A stretch of DNA of 64,000 nt, taken from the NCBI RefSeq assembly GCF_003790525.1, contig NZ_CP033635.1; one strand, written 5' to 3'. The stretch's first letter is position 1. The number at the start of each line of letters is the position of its first letter. Source of the stretch: Escherichia coli (GTDB lineage Bacteria; Pseudomonadota; Gammaproteobacteria; Enterobacterales; Enterobacteriaceae). Positions 3,323 to 31,773 of the stretch are shown here, piece after piece. The translations under genes were made by a program, and so were the position numbers. The notes under the pieces are model-generated. The model saw nothing but the letters and a program-made list of their open reading frames with translations. It searched no databases and was not told the origin of the DNA.

Positions 3323-4815
3323 AATGTGTGCTCCTTGATGCGGGCGTGAAAGCCCTCAAGTGCGGCAATGAGATGCTGATAGCGTTGGTATTTTTGTTGG
3401 TAAAGCTGATGTGCGGTCATATCCGGCAGCAGGGTGCGTACCGGGTGCTGTAAATCACGTTGGGCTTCGCTGAAATCGCGATAAACTCCGGTGCCGACGC
3501 GGGCGGCAAGTGCCGCACCAAAGCAGCCGGTTTCTTCCACCTGCGGCAGCTCGATACGCAGACCGCTGACGTCCGCCAGCATTTGCATCCAGACATCGGA
3601 ATGCGCCGGGCCGCCAGTGACGCGCAGGGTGTGCACATCAGTAAAACGTTCGCGCATCCGGTTGAGATGGGTCATATGGCTGAACACCACGCCTTCATAA
3701 ATGGCCTGCAACAGGTGTGCGCGGGTATGAATGGCCTGCATCCCGTAGAAACCGCTGGTCATCTCCAATCCGGCGTTGCTGCCGTACAGGAACGGCAGGA
3801 AAAAGAGATCGCCCCCGGCCTTCGGCAAGCTGGCAACGGCCTGGTTAATCTCATCAAACGAGATTTCTCCCCACTGTGCGGTAAACCATTCGAGGTTGCC
3901 GGAAGAGGTGGGGCTGGCTTCGTGAACGATAAATTGACCATCGTTAACGTAGCGACCATAGACATACGGATGCGCTTCACCGTCACGTAAACCACGGGTT
4001 ATGCCGCTGGTCACCGCCCAGGTGCCCATCACCGCATTGAGGGTAAATTCGTCTTCGATCCCGGCACAGAGTGCGGTGGAAACCACATCAAACAGGCCGC
4101 CGACAACGGGCGTACCCGCTTTCAGACCGGTCAGTGCGGCTGTCTGAGCGGTGATTTCCCCGCAAATTTCGGCAGATCCGACAACAGGCGGCAGGGCGTG
4201 GTTGATTTCAGCGATCCCCAGCCAGTCGGTGAGGCACGGGTCATATTCCTCAAGACTCATGTTGTAGAGGTTGGACTCGGAAATATTGCTCTCTTCGCAA
4301 CCTTTGACGCCGGTTAAACACCAGCGCAGATAGTCGTGCGTCATCATTACGCAGCCAATTTGCGCGTAGCGTTCCGGTTCGTGCTCTTTCAGCCAGCGTA
4401 ACAGCGACACCGGATGCCCGGTCCACAAGGTTTGTCGGGTCAGCGGGTAGAGTTTTTCCGGGATGCCATCTTCCTGCCAGCGACGAACGATTTCCATCGC
4501 CCGGCGGTCCGAGGACAAAATAGCATTCCCGAGCGGCTTGTCGTTTTTATCCAGCAAAAACAAGCCCTTTCCCTGTGCGGAGATACCGATACCCACTATT
4601 TGCTCCCCGCTGACACCAGAATGAGTAAGCAGGGTGCGAATGACAGCCATGCAGCATTGCCACAGTTCTGCCATATCGCGCTCTGCCCAGCCTGGCTGCG
4701 GGCTTAATGCGCACAGCGGCAGGCGCTGCACGCCTGCCTCCCGGCCTTCGCGGTCATACAGCCCGGCTTTCAGCCAGCTACCGCCACAATCTAACCCCAG
4801 CCAGTATTGCGTCAT
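3319..4815 (-). CDS. lyxK: L-xylulose kinase (FGGY carbohydrate kinase)
   Basis: 498 aa FGGY kinase; 4 bp overlap with sgbH. Confidence 0.9.
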   Translation of the reverse strand: MTQYWLGLDCGGSWLKAGLYDREGREAGVQRLPLCALSPQPGWAERDMAELWQCCMAVIRTLLTHSGVSGEQIVGIGISAQGKGLFLLDKNDKPLGNAILSSDRRAMEIVRRWQEDGIPEKLYPLTRQTLWTGHPVSLLRWLKEHEPERYAQIGCVMMTHDYLRWCLTGVKGCEESNISESNLYNMSLEEYDPCLTDWLGIAEINHALPPVVGSAEICGEITAQTAALTGLKAGTPVVGGLFDVVSTALCAGIEDEFTLNAVMGTWAVTSGITRGLRDGEAHPYVYGRYVNDGQFIVHEASPTSSGNLEWFTAQWGEISFDEINQAVASLPKAGGDLFFLPFLYGSNAGLEMTSGFYGMQAIHTRAHLLQAIYEGVVFSHMTHLNRMRERFTDVHTLRVTGGPAHSDVWMQMLADVSGLRIELPQVEETGCFGAALAARVGTGVYRDFSEAQRDLQHPVRTLLPDMTAHQLYQQKYQRYQHLIAALEGFHARIKEHTL

Positions 4816-27423: not shown

Positions 27424-29493
27424 ATGTCTGAGAAAACTTTTCTGGTGGAAATCGGCACTGAAGAGCTGCCACCAAAAGCACTGCGCAGCCTGGCTGAGTC
27501 CTTTGCTGCGAACTTTACTGCGGAGCTGGATAACGCTGGCCTCGCACACGGCACCGTTCAATGGTTTGCTGCTCCGCGTCGTCTGGCGCTGAAAGTGGCT
27601 AACCTGGCGGAAGCGCAACCGGATCGTGAAATCGAAAAACGCGGCCCGGCAATTGCCCAGGCGTTCGACGCTGAAGGCAAACCGAGCAAAGCGGCAGAAG
27701 GTTGGGCGCGTGGTTGCGGTATTACCGTTGACCAGGCTGAGCGTCTGACTACCGATAAAGGCGAATGGCTGCTGTATCGCGCCCATGTGAAGGGCGAAAG
27801 CACCGAAGCACTGCTGCCGAATATGGTTGCGACTTCGCTGGCGAAACTGCCGATCCCGAAACTGATGCGTTGGGGCGCAAGCGACGTGCACTTCGTGCGT
27901 CCGGTTCACACCGTGACCCTGCTGCTGGGCGACAAAGTTATTCCGGCTACCATTCTGGGTATTCAGTCCGATCGCGTGATTCGCGGTCACCGCTTTATGG
28001 GCGAGTCGGAATTCACTATCGACAATGCCGATCAGTATCCGGAAATTCTGCGTGAGCGCGGGAAAGTCATCGCCGATTACGAAGAACGTAAGGCGAAGAT
28101 TAAAGCCGATGCCGAAGAAGCGGCGCGTAAGATTGGCGGTAACGCTGACTTAAGCGAAAGCCTGTTGGAAGAAGTCGCTTCGCTGGTGGAATGGCCGGTT
28201 GTGCTGACCGCAAAATTCGAAGAGAAATTCCTCGCGGTGCCGTCTGAAGCGCTGGTTTACACCATGAAAGGTGACCAGAAATACTTCCCGGTGTATGCGA
28301 ACGACGGCAAACTGCTGCCGAACTTTATCTTCGTTGCCAATATCGAATCGAAAGATCCGCAGCAAATTATCTCTGGTAACGAGAAAGTCGTTCGTCCACG
28401 TCTGGCGGATGCCGAGTTCTTCTTCAACACCGACCGTAAAAAACGTCTGGAAGATAACCTGCCGCGCCTGCAAACCGTGTTGTTCCAGCAACAGCTGGGT
28501 ACACTGCGCGACAAAACTGACCGCATCCAGGCGCTGGCTGGCTGGATTGCTGAACAGATTGGCGCTGACGTTAACCACGCAACCCGTGCGGGCCTGCTGT
28601 CCAAGTGCGACCTGATGACCAACATGGTCTTCGAGTTCACCGACACCCAGGGCGTTATGGGGATGCACTACGCGCGTCACGATGGCGAAGCGGAAGATGT
28701 TGCCGTGGCGCTGAACGAGCAGTATCAGCCGCGCTTTGCCGGTGATGACCTGCCGTCTAACCCGGTAGCCTGTGCGCTGGCGATTGCTGACAAGATGGAT
28801 ACTCTGGCGGGTATCTTCGGTATCGGCCAGCATCCGAAAGGCGACAAAGACCCGTTTGCGTTGCGTCGTGCCGCACTTGGCGTGCTGCGTATTATCGTTG
28901 AGAAGAACCTCAATCTTGACCTGCAAACCCTGACCGAAGAAGCAGTGCGTCTGTATGGCGATAAGCTGACTAATGCCAACGTGGTTGATGATGTTATCGA
29001 CTTTATGCTCGGTCGCTTCCGCGCCTGGTATCAGGACGAAGGTTACACCGTTGACACCATCCAGGCGGTACTGGCGCGTCGTCCGACTCGTCCGGCTGAT
29101 TTCGATGCCCGAATGAAAGCGGTATCGCACTTCCGTACCCTGGATGCAGCTGCAGCACTGGCGGCGGCGAACAAGCGTGTATCTAACATTCTGGCGAAAT
29201 CTGACGAAGTGCTGAGCGACCGCGTGAATGCCTCTACTCTGAAAGAGCCGGAAGAAATTAAACTGGCGATGCAGGTTGTGGTGCTACGTGACAAGCTAGA
29301 GCCGTACTTTGCTGAAGGTCGTTACCAGGATGCGCTGGTCGAACTGGCTGAGCTGCGTGAACCGGTTGATGCCTTCTTCGATAAAGTGATGGTCATGGTT
29401 GATGACAAAGAATTGCGAATCAACCGTCTTACCATGCTGGAGAAACTGCGCGAATTATTCCTGCGAGTTGCGGATATTTCGCTGTTGCAGTAA
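27424..29493 (+). CDS. glyS: glycyl-tRNA synthetase beta subunit
   Basis: 689 aa. Confidence 0.96.
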
Positions 29494-29506
29494 TAACGTC
29501 GTTATT

Positions 29507-29536
29507 AAAAAGCCTGCCATCTGGCAGGCTTTTTTA
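29507..29536 (+). terminator. rho-independent terminator of glyQS
   Basis: agcctgcc-atct-ggcaggct followed by ttttttat. Confidence 0.8.
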
Positions 29537-29770
29537 TCGCTAAATAATAGAGCAACCTTTAATAATCTTCTGCTGAATAAAGATTGTCTCATATATTAAT
29601 TTTATGAGATTTTTTTAGGATTATATCAAGGAGAAGAAACGAACTTATTAAGCTAGAATAGCTGCGGGTGCTTGAGACTGTTTGTCTCAGGTATTCACCG
29701 AAAGGCAGACAGAGAAAAGCCCCACCTGACTATAAATCAAAGTGTGTACTGACCCCAGAAAGTTGGACAG

Positions 29771-30622
29771 TTAAACACGAGGCATATAGGTCTGATTCCG
29801 ATATTCAATTGGAGTCAGACCTTTTAATTTCAGGCTAATTCTTCTGCTGTTGTAGTATTCAATATATTCCGTAACAGCATCCTTCAGCTCGCTTATATTA
29901 CTGAACTCATCAAGATAAAAACACTCCGACTTTAAGGTTCCAAAGAAACACTCCACCACAGCATTATCCAGACAATTGCCTTTTCTGGACATGCTTTGTT
30001 TAATACCATGTTCTTTAAGGATATTTTGATATCTTCTCATACGATACTGCCATCCCTGGTCAGAGTGCAGAACAGGATGCTCGTGAGGATTAAGCTTTTT
30101 GAATGCCTGATCGAGCATATTCTCGACCATGTTCATCACTGGTCTTTCCGAAAGGCTGTAAGAAATAACTTCGTTGTTGAAGAGATCTATTACTGGAGAC
30201 AAATACAGCTTGCGCCCATTGACTGCAAATTCAGTAACATCGGTAACCCACTTCTCGTTTGGCCGCGTAGCCTTGAAATCTCTTTGGAGAACATTGGGGG
30301 CGGTTTGCCCTACCTCTCCTCTGTAAGAGCGGTATCGCTTGACCTTAATCGCTGCCTTCAGTGAGAGGATTCCCATCAGGCGCTGAACAGCTTTATGGTT
30401 AATCTGTTTCCCTTCTCGATGAAGAGACAGCGTTACCCTACGGTATCCGTATCGGCCTCTATTCTCATGATAAATCTCACCAATACGCTTTTTAACGTCC
30501 GCATACTTGTCAGGCTTGCTGAGAGCCTTTAGATGGTAATAAAACGTACTGCGCGGTATCTCCGCAGCCCTGAGAAGCTCATCAAGAGGATAAAACTGCC
30601 TTAGCTCGTTGAGTACTTTCAC
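29771..30622 (-). CDS. insK: IS150 transposase OrfB (DDE catalytic domain)
   Basis: 283 aa. Confidence 0.92.
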
Positions 30623-31140
30623 TTTTTCGTGGGATGAGCTAAGGCTTTCAGCTTTTTTAGATACACAAGCCGCGTTTCAAGAAATCGAACTTGCCTTTCA
30701 AGATCCTCAATGCGTCGGTCTTTTGACAGCTCCAATGCTGATGCCGCTTTTTCTGGATCAACTGATATTGCAATGTTTCTTTTGGTGCCAATCTTGAGCG
30801 CGCGTAAACCAGCTTCTCCGCGCTCTTCATAAACCTTCAGCCACCTGGCTACAGAACCACTACCAGCAAGCATAAAGTGAGCAGCAGCCTGATTAAGAGA
30901 CATGTGCTGCTCGATCACAGCTTTCACGACCTTAATACGCAACTCAGGATCAGCACTAACACCTTTAGGTTTGGGAATTAAACCTTTTTCTCCATGTTTT
31001 TCATAGAGGGCAACCCATGTCCTGACCTGGGTTCGGGGGACACCAAAACGTGCCGAGATGATCCTGTAACCATCATCAGTAGTGAAGTAGTGATTCACGA
31101 CTTCAAGGCGCTTTTCAAAAGGGTATTTTGGCTTTGACAT
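30619..31140 (-). CDS. insJ: IS150 OrfA (HTH DNA-binding)
   Basis: 173 aa; overlaps insK as in IS3-family elements. Confidence 0.92.
   Translation of the reverse strand: MSKPKYPFEKRLEVVNHYFTTDDGYRIISARFGVPRTQVRTWVALYEKHGEKGLIPKPKGVSADPELRIKVVKAVIEQHMSLNQAAAHFMLAGSGSVARWLKVYEERGEAGLRALKIGTKRNIAISVDPEKAASALELSKDRRIEDLERQVRFLETRLVYLKKLKALAHPTKK
30652..30658 (-). promoter_or_regulatory. A-AAA-AAG slippery heptamer for the programmed -1 frameshift producing the InsJK fusion transposase
   Basis: reverse complement of cttttttag at 30652..30660 reads ctaAAAAAG, near the 3' end of insJ. Confidence 0.6.
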
Positions 31141-31219
31141 ATCAGGGGCTATTCCATTTCATCGTCCAACAAAATGGGTGCAGTACATACTCGTTGGAAA
31201 TCAACACAGGAGGCTGGGA

Positions 31220-31372
31220 ATGCCGCAGAAATATAGATTACTTTCTTTAATAGTGATTTGTTTCACGCTTTTATTTTTCACCTGGATGATAAGAGATTCA
31301 CTGTGTGAATTGCATATTAAACAGGGGAGTTATGAGCTGGCGGCGTTTTTAGCCTGCAAATTGAAAGAGTAA
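31220..31372 (+). CDS. hokA: Hok-family type I toxin; locus disrupted because IS150 lies 32 bp upstream
   Basis: 50 aa MPQKYRLLSLIVICFTLLFFTWMIRDSLCELHIKQGSYELAAFLACKLKE; hok-like mRNA 5' sequence (gtgcttgagactgtttgtctcag) is found on the far side of IS150 near 29675. Confidence 0.85.
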   Translation: MPQKYRLLSLIVICFTLLFFTWMIRDSLCELHIKQGSYELAAFLACKLKE

Positions 31373-31505
31373 GCGTCTTCGGCGGGAAGTTATTCCCGCC
31401 TTTCTTACGGCGTTGCGCATTCTCATTGCACCCAAATTTATTCTTCACAAAAATAATAATAGATTTTATTACGCGAACGATTATTTATTTCCTGAATAAA
31501 CAAAT

Positions 31506-31536
31506 AAAAAAATCCCCGCCATTTGGCAGGGATCTT
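31506..31536 (-). terminator. rho-independent terminator of cspA
   Basis: minus-strand hairpin atccctgcc-aaat-ggcggggat followed by T-tract. Confidence 0.7.
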
Positions 31537-31560
31537 AGATTCTGTGCTTTTAAGCAGAGA

Positions 31561-31773
31561 TTACAGGCTGGTTACGTTACCAGCTGCCGGGCCTTTAGCG
31601 CCGCTTTCGATGGTGAAGGACACTTTCTGACCTTCGTCCAGAGATTTGTAACCATCGTTCTGGATAGCAGAGAAGTGTACGAACACGTCTTTAGAGCCAT
31701 CGTCAGGAGTGATGAAGCCGAAGCCTTTGTCAGCGTTGAACCATTTTACGATACCAGTCATTTTACCGGACAT
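31561..31773 (-). CDS. cspA: major cold-shock protein CspA
   Basis: 70 aa [70 protein letters not shown]. Confidence 0.98.

Follow-up and report, generated by a model that had tools for sequence, protein, structure and literature searches.

An intact IS150 replacing 38 bp of hokA leader sequence: a K-12-type allele of a probably dead type I toxin–antitoxin locus in a non-K-12 Escherichia coli

The hokA locus of the E. coli contig NZ_CP033635.1 carries an intact IS150 element that replaces 38 bp of the hokA leader. We consider it highly probable (about 85%) that this is the K-12-type hokA::IS150 allele residing in a non-K-12 E. coli background, and that it constitutes a dead type I toxin–antitoxin locus. 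All coordinates below refer to the window, i.e. the whole 64,000-nucleotide stretch of this contig that was analysed.

The element occupies positions 29745..31187 on the minus strand and is exactly 1443 bp long, with IRR (TGTACTGACCCC) at 29745, forming its left end, and IRL (GGGTGCAGTACA) at 31187, forming its right end. The inverted repeats are imperfect, being identical over their first 7 nt, and the termini are canonical (TGTACTG...CAGTACA), conforming to the 5′-TG...CA-3′ rule. Both reading frames are intact on the minus strand: insJ (orfA, 173 aa, 30619..31140) encodes the helix-turn-helix part and matches Pfam HTH_28 (81.5 bits) and HTH_29, and insK (orfB, 283 aa, 29771..30622) encodes the DDE integrase-core part of the transposase and matches rve (101.7 bits), rve_2, rve_3 and HTH_21. 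The two frames are linked through a −1 frameshift at the heptamer A AAA AAG, which is the reverse complement of the plus-strand letters at 30652..30658, and in other genomes RefSeq labels the same element a programmed-frameshift transposase. In an alignment with the reference copy of K-12 MG1655, the element is full length and identical at 1426 of 1443 sites (98.8%, 17 differences); the copies of strains E20 and 2016C-3878 are identical to that of the window. Considering (i) its length, (ii) its termini, (iii) its two frameshift-joined reading frames, and (iv) its near-identity to the reference, the element is IS150 (IS3 family, IS150 group). The complete IS150 reported in the initial annotation is thus borne out, as is every coordinate given there. 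The 3-bp direct target duplication that usually accompanies IS150 is absent, the left flank being GTG and the right flank TAC, just as they had been read; this absence describes the insertion event and not the element, whose assignment to IS150 is unaffected.

Both flanks are hok-locus sequence. To the left, the hokA mRNA leader survives for its first 79 nt (29666..29744, plus strand), which start with GGGUGCUUGAG, contain a long stem and are severed from the remainder of the leader by IS150. An Rfam RF01794 match beginning at GGGUGCUUGAG (29666..29762, plus strand) scores 68.8 bits, above the gathering score of 59, and confirms the hok-type mRNA 5′ sequence previously noticed near position 29675. 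A candidate promoter −10 element, TAGAAT (29654..29659, plus strand), was read from the sequence 6 nt upstream of the leader; it lacks a convincing −35 element, and a consensus scan did not call its −10 element either. To the right, exactly 32 nt (31188..31219, plus strand) separate the end of IS150 from the hokA ATG. By alignment with the uninterrupted locus, they comprise the end of the leader with the last 10–11 codons of the mokA frame, and they include the hokA Shine-Dalgarno sequence AGGAGG (31208..31213, plus strand). The 50-codon toxin ORF itself (31220..31372, plus strand) is intact, as had been proposed; it matches Pfam HOK_GEF (PF01848) with 83.2 bits at a cut-off of 22 bits, and the sole residue of HokA that differs from K-12 is residue 36 (Gly in the window, Glu in K-12). 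The stop codon is followed by a GC-rich stem-loop found by the consensus scan (31381..31400, plus strand), which belongs to the 3′ structure of hok mRNA, and by a candidate fold-back-inhibition element, CTCATTGCACCC (31422..31433, plus strand), which was picked by eye from analogy with R1 hok mRNA and is partially complementary to the 5′ end GGGTGC at 29666. Antisense to the hokA 3′ end is a 23-codon ysaE-like ORF (31349..31420, minus strand), at the position of which other genomes annotate ysaE or a hypothetical protein. Rfam matches near the glyS terminator (STnc370 and leader families) are weak and fall below their gathering scores.

Alignment of the window with K-12, strain E20 and the uninterrupted locus of strain EC42405 defines the junctions: between AAAGTG and TACTCG, the window lacks exactly 38 bp (AGGCTACCCTATGCCTGAACACCATAAGGTTAGCCTCT) of the uninterrupted sequence. 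The hok sequence of the window fits only positions 1–83 of the RF01794 model before IS150 begins, whereas the EC42405 locus (1727–1878) scores 124 bits; about 66 model positions are missing at the junction. The missing segment contains a hairpin at model positions 84–123 (−15.1 kcal/mol, z −2.95; antisense strand −22.5 kcal/mol, z −4.55) and the mokA ATG, which is in frame with hokA and, in EC42405, lies 20 codons upstream of it. We infer that the segment also held the −10 element of sokA and the 5′ target-recognition part of this antisense RNA. The placement of the sokA promoter follows from positional homology with R1-type sok promoters, an R1-like plasmid locus (L012) displaying ttgcgc-17-tatcct at the homologous place. 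What is left of sokA in the window is the 3′ 35 nt of the RNA (29709..29743, minus strand), mapped from the MG1655 sokA pseudogene b4614 (3722077–3722111), which likewise sits beside IS150 in a region free of indels between K-12 and the window. On the other side of IS150 there is a putative orphaned −35 element, TTGATT (31199..31204, minus strand), assigned by R1 sok homology; its −10 partner (TAACCT in uninterrupted loci) would have been in the missing 38 bp. The remnants are thus split by IS150, with the sokA 3′ part on the left and the sokA −35 element, the mokA end and the hokA Shine-Dalgarno sequence on the right. With its ATG lost, the mok frame would no longer be coupled to hok, and, the promoter being placed by homology, no Sok antisense RNA with a promoter of its own is expected. 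Of the earlier proposal that IS150 separates hokA from its promoter and from the mok/sok region, the cut-off of the promoter and leader therefore stands; an intact mok/sok region that is merely displaced does not.

The same alignment bears on the missing duplication. IS150 normally generates 3-bp duplications, and GTG and TAC could conceivably descend from one by mutation, so the allele might represent a simple insertion in which point mutations eroded the duplication or the ends were misread by one base. We regard this as extremely improbable. The 38 bp missing here are retained by every clean-insertion allele and by the 2831 genomes with an uninterrupted locus, and both ends of the element are canonical and exactly 1443 bp apart. 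The 38-bp gap rules out both a decayed duplication and a one-base offset, the latter having been suggested in the initial annotation together with a secondary rearrangement; the rearrangement is the suggestion that proved correct.

The allele is already known and is of the K-12 type. The MG1655 locus shares with the window its position, its orientation, the 38-bp loss, the right junction CAGTACA/TACTCG (slashes mark IS150 boundaries here and below) and its neighbours, glyS on one side and cspA and yiaG on the other. The MG1655 annotation (NC_000913.3) shows IS150 (insJ b3557, insK b3558), hokA (b4455) and the pseudogenes mokA (b4647) and sokA (b4614) in the arrangement of the window, with mokA ending at the insertion sequence, and a passage in PMC11551753, citing Pedersen and Gerdes (1999, Mol Microbiol 32:1090), describes sokA of MG1655 as disrupted by IS150. 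The window is nevertheless not K-12, as its flanks and its IS150 belong to a different lineage. The left flank differs from K-12 at 25 of 719 sites, and the base adjoining IRR is G in the window and T in K-12. Over the same 719 bp, the window has a single difference from an uninterrupted strain, and K-12 has a single difference from an allele in which IS150 is in the opposite orientation. The 17 differences between the two IS150 copies comprise 12 synonymous, 3 non-synonymous and 2 non-coding changes, and neutral divergence in place is disfavoured as their source by the 12:3 ratio. Nine of the 17 window variants are common to the independently inserted copy of strain GF4-3, and the K-12 copy is identical to copies inserted in hokC. 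Exact matches to the window allele occur in strains E20 and 2016C-3878; this is a minority version, and ranked sampling suggests that it occurs in fewer than about 160 genomes.

These observations raise the possibility of two independent origins, in which the same hairpin was replaced once in the window allele, with its G at IRR and its variant IS150, and once in the K-12 allele, with its T at IRR and its canonical IS150. The substitution pattern is that of purifying selection, not of decay in place, and the variants shared with GF4-3, the identity of the K-12 copy to the hokC copies and the near-identity of each left flank to a different allele all point in this direction. On the other hand, the shared orientation and the shared 38-bp loss are most simply explained by one event, recombination and gene conversion between IS copies could exchange flanks and IS interiors, and just five alleles of this type were examined nucleotide by nucleotide. 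On balance, we hold two origins to be somewhat less probable than one.

IS150 is a frequent occupant of hok leaders. Among 5426 complete E. coli genomes, the hokA locus is uninterrupted in 2831, and about 48% have IS150 in the hokA leader, within two nucleotides of the same spot. The junctions of the window occur in 1632–1653 genomes, a count that includes 94 clean insertions in the same orientation, and the hairpin-replacing allele type accounts for about 30% of all genomes; IS150 is in the opposite orientation in 883. The homologous spot in hokC is occupied in 273 genomes, and the hokE leader is interrupted in about 450. Clean insertions in hokA (in ST131-type and other strains), hokC, sokE (sokE::IS150) and plasmid hok involve the same element and the same few target nucleotides at the base of the mok/sokT hairpin. 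Like the window allele, they split the leader; they differ from it in that they keep the hairpin and are flanked by 3–5 bp duplications (AAG, AAGTG, ACC, TAC, TAA), of which the window has neither. At the left foot of the hokA hairpin, strain REF2 carries atcaAAG/IS/AAGtgagg in the orientation of the window, JCH8249 and GF4-3 have an AAG duplication with IS150 in the opposite orientation, and Z226-6 has AAGTG duplicated; the left-foot insertion in hokC has an ACC duplication. At the right foot of plasmid hok, one locus (L012) reads gcctctTAC/IRR..IRL/TACtgcgc and another (L013) cccgaTAA/IS/TAAccg, both in the orientation of the window. IRR adjoins the hairpin arm in the opposite-orientation hokA alleles, in the hokC and hokE insertions and in the right-foot insertions of plasmids.

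Combining these findings, we propose that both feet of the hairpin would be preferred IS150 targets. The right junction of the window (IRL/TAC) would be what a right-foot insertion that had duplicated TAC leaves on its right side, and the left junction (AAAGTG/IRR) would lie at the left-foot target. As the two junctions are one of each foot type, the allele is likely a composite that arose by deletion of the hairpin together with one of the TAC copies, and the 3-bp duplication would be missing because the 38 bp and that TAC copy are gone. It could have formed by (i) a deletion adjacent to an IS end, (ii) recombination between two directly oriented IS150 copies, one per foot, or (iii) a single deletion-coupled insertion. 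No right-foot IS150 in hokA with the hairpin still present was found in the 5426 genomes, so the proposed intermediate is known from plasmid paralogues only. The T that adjoins IRR in K-12 is not produced by any simple deletion model without an extra substitution.

The third route would make the duplication-free state original: a single integration would have been coupled to loss of the hairpin, with the IS ends joined to both feet or the IS captured at a palindrome break, and a duplication would never have been made. Such events have precedent. In three populations of the long-term evolution experiment, 14 of 68 IS150 moves had deletions, of 14 bp to 49 kb, and no duplication (Ngan et al., bioRxiv 10.1101/2024.06.02.596822), and deletion-coupled, duplication-free IS150 insertions made up about 17% of IS movements in those populations (bioRxiv 10.1101/2024.06.02.596822; mBio 2024, PMC11708052). 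As in the window, these events left a new IS150 copy with unduplicated flanks and removed the DNA between the junctions, in one case as little as 14 bp; they are laboratory events, whereas the window holds a natural allele fixed in many lineages, with endpoints at two preferred targets. The hokE::IS150 allele of E. coli B (BL21) likewise combines an adjacent deletion and a missing duplication with IRR at the foot of a hok hairpin, but there about 162 bp were lost next to IRL, and with them the promoter and 5′ leader, while the hairpin stayed intact. A one-step origin is further favoured by the absence of the right-foot intermediate and by the location of both junctions at positions that serve as strand-transfer sites in other alleles. 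Against it, the mechanism is hypothetical, and, having a large loop and a stem of no more than about 9 bp, the segment is not expected to undergo cruciform extrusion or hairpin cleavage. Moreover, the hairpin-replacing allele was found neither in the opposite orientation at hokA, where 883 of 883 genomes retain the hairpin, nor at hokC, where both orientations were searched. We therefore consider a one-step origin plausible but unlikely.

Whatever its route of formation, the composite allele leaves the hokA promoter and the first 79 leader nucleotides 1.44 kb from hokA, beyond IS150. A terminator-like hairpin found inside IS150 by the consensus scan (29788..29822, plus strand; a 15-bp stem followed by TTTAATTT) would stop transcripts arriving from that promoter. 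The scan, which required 9 of 12 consensus positions, found no promoter reading from IS150 towards hokA on the plus strand near IRL, and nothing reached the threshold for read-out, hokA or sokA promoters; the promoter positions given here follow from homology only. hokA would thus be neither transcribed from its own promoter nor translatable via mok coupling, and sokA would not be made either, so the locus is probably inert despite its intact toxin ORF. This anatomy supports the silencing of the toxin ORF, which had been thought probable before, as a likely consequence.

Some features count against silencing. IRL contains, at 31178, an in-frame GTG from which a 64-codon ORF extends into hokA, and TTGACA at 31128..31133, read by eye, could serve as a weak outward −35 element. 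That many genomes have kept an intact hokA ORF could point to residual function. An allele that is rewired instead of dead, with hokA expressed from a promoter in or at the edge of IS150, perhaps as the 64-codon GTG fusion, would account for these features, for the intact Shine-Dalgarno sequence and for the persistence of the allele, with a conserved ORF, in about 30% of genomes. Against it stand the negative promoter scan near IRL and the loss of the antitoxin, as expression without it should be lethal; R1 hok without sok gave only loss-of-function mutants (PMC9841398). The K-12 locus is, in addition, regarded as inactivated in the literature. We judge continued expression to be very unlikely.

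For annotation, it follows that hokA of the window is best described as a silent remnant and mokA and sokA as pseudogenes, and that the missing target duplication is not an error of assembly or reading. The survey ties IS150 strongly to hok leaders and shows plasmid hok loci to be hit at the mirror-image hairpin foot. It bears on whether selection or the target preference of the transposon disarms the hok/sok loci of chromosomes, a question touched on in the literature, where hok/sok loci are noted as insertion hot spots. Tentatively, and with the odds rather against it, we suggest that IS150 recognises both feet of the conserved mok/sokT hairpin in a fixed geometry and that the hairpin-replacing allele formed more than once, the window and K-12 lineages carrying different IS150 sublineages on different haplotypes. 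If so, hok leaders would be structure-specific landing pads for IS150, and a transposon would repeatedly disarm toxin loci in a stereotyped way.

The region read, 29300..31700, runs from the 3′ end of glyS (stop at 29493), followed by its own terminator, through an AT-rich spacer, a hok-type leader, IS150 and hokA to cspA, which lies on the strand opposite hokA and has a thermoregulator leader. The initial annotation had described a complete IS150 with insJ, insK and a frameshift heptamer, and all of its coordinates held when the ORFs, IS ends, heptamer and leader were re-checked. The element (29745..31187) is exactly 1443 bp long, with ends TGTACTGACCCC and GGGTGCAGTACA, and its minus strand carries intact insJ (31140..30619, 173 aa, HTH_28 and HTH_29 matches), intact insK (30622..29771, 283 aa, rve, rve_2 and rve_3 matches) and the heptamer A AAA AAG (reverse complement of 30652..30658). 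hokA (31220..31372, plus strand) encodes 50 residues with a Pfam HOK_GEF match of 83 bits, and its ATG lies 32 nt from the IS end. The leader (29666..29762) scores 68.8 bits with Rfam RF01794 (gathering score 59); this family, though named ‘sok’, models the hok-sense leader as far as the hok AUG, and about 66 model positions are skipped at the IS start. A 23-codon ORF antisense to the hokA 3′ end (31349..31420, minus strand) is the counterpart of MG1655 ysaE (b4793) and is annotated likewise in most genomes looked at. In Rfam, the glyS terminator region (29501..29567, minus strand) hits the enterobacterial sRNA STnc370 below threshold (46.3 bits, gathering score 54), and so does the uninterrupted locus of EC42405.

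When the two flanks were joined and searched in 5426 complete E. coli genomes, 2831 of them had an unbroken hokA locus, exceeding the joined flanks in length by 38-42 bp. In an alignment of the window with K-12, E20 and the uninterrupted EC42405 locus, exactly 38 bp that separate AAAGTG from TACTCG in EC42405, AGGCTACCCTATGCCTGAACACCATAAGGTTAGCCTCT, are missing from the IS-bearing alleles. The intact locus scores 124 bits with RF01794, and the absent bases make up the stem-loop that the model has at positions 84-123; either strand of this segment folds into a hairpin (z-scores −2.95 and −4.55), and within it lies the mokA ATG, 20 codons upstream of hokA and in frame. At the equivalent position an R1-like plasmid locus (L012) carries the R1-type sok promoter, ttgcgc-17-tatcct, whose hokA counterpart would by positional homology be TTGATT-17-TAACCT on the minus strand. 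The putative sokA −35 element would then be kept at 31204..31199, with the −10 element and the sokA 5′ end falling in the absent 38 bp. As the hairpin, the mokA ATG and the presumed sokA −10 element are all absent, the regulatory core of the locus has been swapped for IS150, not merely split. The initial annotation saw correctly that IS150 lies 32 bp upstream of hokA, but its reading as plain separation of the toxin ORF from promoter and mok/sok gives way to the replacement of 38 bp, which, in the alignment to the uninterrupted locus, also explains the missing 3-bp duplication for which offset ends or a secondary rearrangement had been suggested.

In other genomes, IS150 is found at most 2 nt from the window site with the hairpin intact. 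Insertions at the left of the two hairpin bases (the left foot) of hokA have the orientation of the window in REF2 (atcaAAG/IS/AAGtgaggcta) and the opposite one in JCH8249 and GF4-3 (AAG duplication) and in Z226-6 (AAGTG on both sides), and a hokC locus (L011) has an opposite-orientation left-foot insertion, atcaACC/IS/ACCcgaggcc. Right-foot insertions in the window's orientation occur in two plasmid hok loci, the R1-like one (gcctctTAC/IRR...IRL/TACtgcgc) and L013 (cccgaTAA/IS/TAAccgcc). The paralogues hokC (L010, L011), hokE (L017, L018) and plasmid hok (L012, L013) have IS150 at the homologous foot of the hairpin; in most cases IRR (TGTACTGACCCC) is the end adjoining the hairpin arm, at the left foot in hokC and hokE and at the right foot in the plasmid loci, which is consistent with the two-fold symmetry of the palindrome. 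The hokE loci of E. coli B strain BL21 (L017, 225..2201) and AR_0369 (L018) resemble the window in having an IS150 without target duplication and with flanking loss; IRR is at the hairpin foot, and about 162 bp are missing on the IRL side, the promoter of hokE and its 5′ leader among them. The BL21 copy is itself broken by IS1. An IS4-like IS421/IS186 starts about 78 bp past the stop of hokC (L010, L011, L014) and hokE (L017, L018) in all these strains, which makes the 3′ end of hok genes a further IS hot spot, as it is in K-12. In GF4-3 the hokA locus is flanked on each side by additional annotated genes (L009, 1426..1785 and 3846..4217), a hypothetical ORF of 119 aa that follows glyS and a yidD-like gene ahead of cspA, and the annotation gives hokA as frameshifted; these oddities may be assembly errors or genuine insertions.

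Given the plasmid right-foot insertions with TAC duplication, the right junction of the window, CAGTACA/TACTCG, is of the right-foot type, being the remainder expected of such an event. The left junction, AAAGTG/TGTACTG, stops at the same nucleotide as the Z226-6 left-foot allele. The simplest reading of these sequences is a composite allele, in which the stretch from one preferred IS150 target position to the other, with the hairpin and one TAC copy, would have dropped out. Such an allele could arise by (i) a right-foot insertion and then an adjacent deletion from IRR into the left-foot site, (ii) recombination between two directly oriented IS150 copies, one at each foot, or (iii) one integration coupled to deletion; all three routes fit the composite reading and none is preferred. 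The deletion-coupled route is documented for IS150 by Ngan et al., who recorded 68 IS150 moves across three long-term evolution populations; 14 of these came with deletions, from 14 bp up to 49 kb in size, and none of the 14 had a duplication. Against the two-step routes stands the absence from the 5426 genomes of any right-foot IS150 in hokA with the hairpin intact. Hairpin-replacing alleles in the opposite orientation at hokA, or at hokC, were likewise not found in this collection.

IS150 has the hokA promoter region and the leader's first 79 nt on its upstream side, and a consensus scan found a terminator-like hairpin on the hokA-sense strand (29788..29822, a 15-bp stem and then a T-rich tract) 44 nt inside the element. 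Translation of hok requires that of mok in the R1 system; the mokA start is absent from the window allele. With the leader cut off, the terminator-like hairpin in place, and the mokA start and the putative sokA −10 element and 5′ end lost, the locus should express neither toxin nor antitoxin. This anatomy agrees with the initial proposal that hokA is probably silenced, and the K-12 locus is treated in the literature as inactivated. The caveats are that the toxin ORF is still intact, that an in-frame GTG at 31178 in IRL opens a 64-codon ORF into hokA and that TTGACA at 31128..31133 could serve as a weak −35 element. The hybrid ORF (31178..31372, plus strand) would read MQYILVGNQHRRLG followed by HokA, its GTG lying within the IS150 left inverted repeat. 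There is no obvious ribosome-binding site ahead of this GTG, and the consensus scan found no promoter directed out of IRL toward hokA.

The window carries, in a different lineage, the hokA::IS150 allele of the type known from K-12. In the MG1655 reference record, IS150 occupies 3720633-3722075; both mokA (b4647), which stops at the IS, and sokA (b4614, 35 nt), on its other side, are listed as pseudogenes. A passage of PMC11551753, citing Pedersen and Gerdes 1999, gives MG1655 sokA as disrupted by IS150, and the same article puts the isolates with sokE::IS150 at more than 400; a population-genomic study (bioRxiv 10.1101/527788) and evolution experiments with E. coli B derivatives (PMC5419217) have each reported hok/sok loci as hot spots for insertion. 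From the MG1655 annotation and these papers, the finding is therefore already known. Across the 5426 complete genomes, the hokA leader is uninterrupted in 2831 and holds IS150 in about 48%, the hairpin-replacing type accounting for about 29-30%. Window-type junctions number 1632 (left) and 1653 (right), counts that include 94 clean same-orientation insertions, many labelled ST131; opposite-orientation insertions at hokA number 883, hokC left-foot insertions 273, and the hokE leader is interrupted in about 450. In an evenly spaced ranking of window-type left-junction matches the K-12 version is dominant, and from this ranking, not a direct count, we estimate that the version in the window occurs in fewer than about 160 genomes.

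By its sequence the window is of a non-K-12 lineage; its left flank differs from that of K-12 at 25 sites over 719 bp, compared to one for the uninterrupted EC42405 locus. The base left of IRR (29744) is G in the window, E20, 2016C-3878 and the intact loci, but T in K-12 and D72; the MG1655 sokA pseudogene annotation begins one base past this T. We compared the window IS150 (29745..31187) with the copies in K-12 (L002), REF2 (L004), GF4-3 (L009), the hokC loci (L010, L011) and L005 and L008. The K-12 copy, which is identical to hokC-inserted copies of other strains, differs from that of the window at 17 sites (12 synonymous, 3 non-synonymous, 2 non-coding); 9 of the 17 window variants are common to the independently inserted GF4-3 copy, and the window version is exactly matched in E20 and 2016C-3878. 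The mostly synonymous nature of the differences argues for distinct active sublineages of IS150 rather than drift in place. The hairpin-replacing allele may have arisen twice, or it may have had a single origin, with later swapping of both the flanks and the interior of the IS through recombination or gene conversion; the five sequenced examples on which this choice rests are too few to decide it. Whether IS150 targets the feet of the hok-leader hairpin by structure, and whether the hairpin-replacing allele has formed more than once, is the modestly interesting question that this locus raises.
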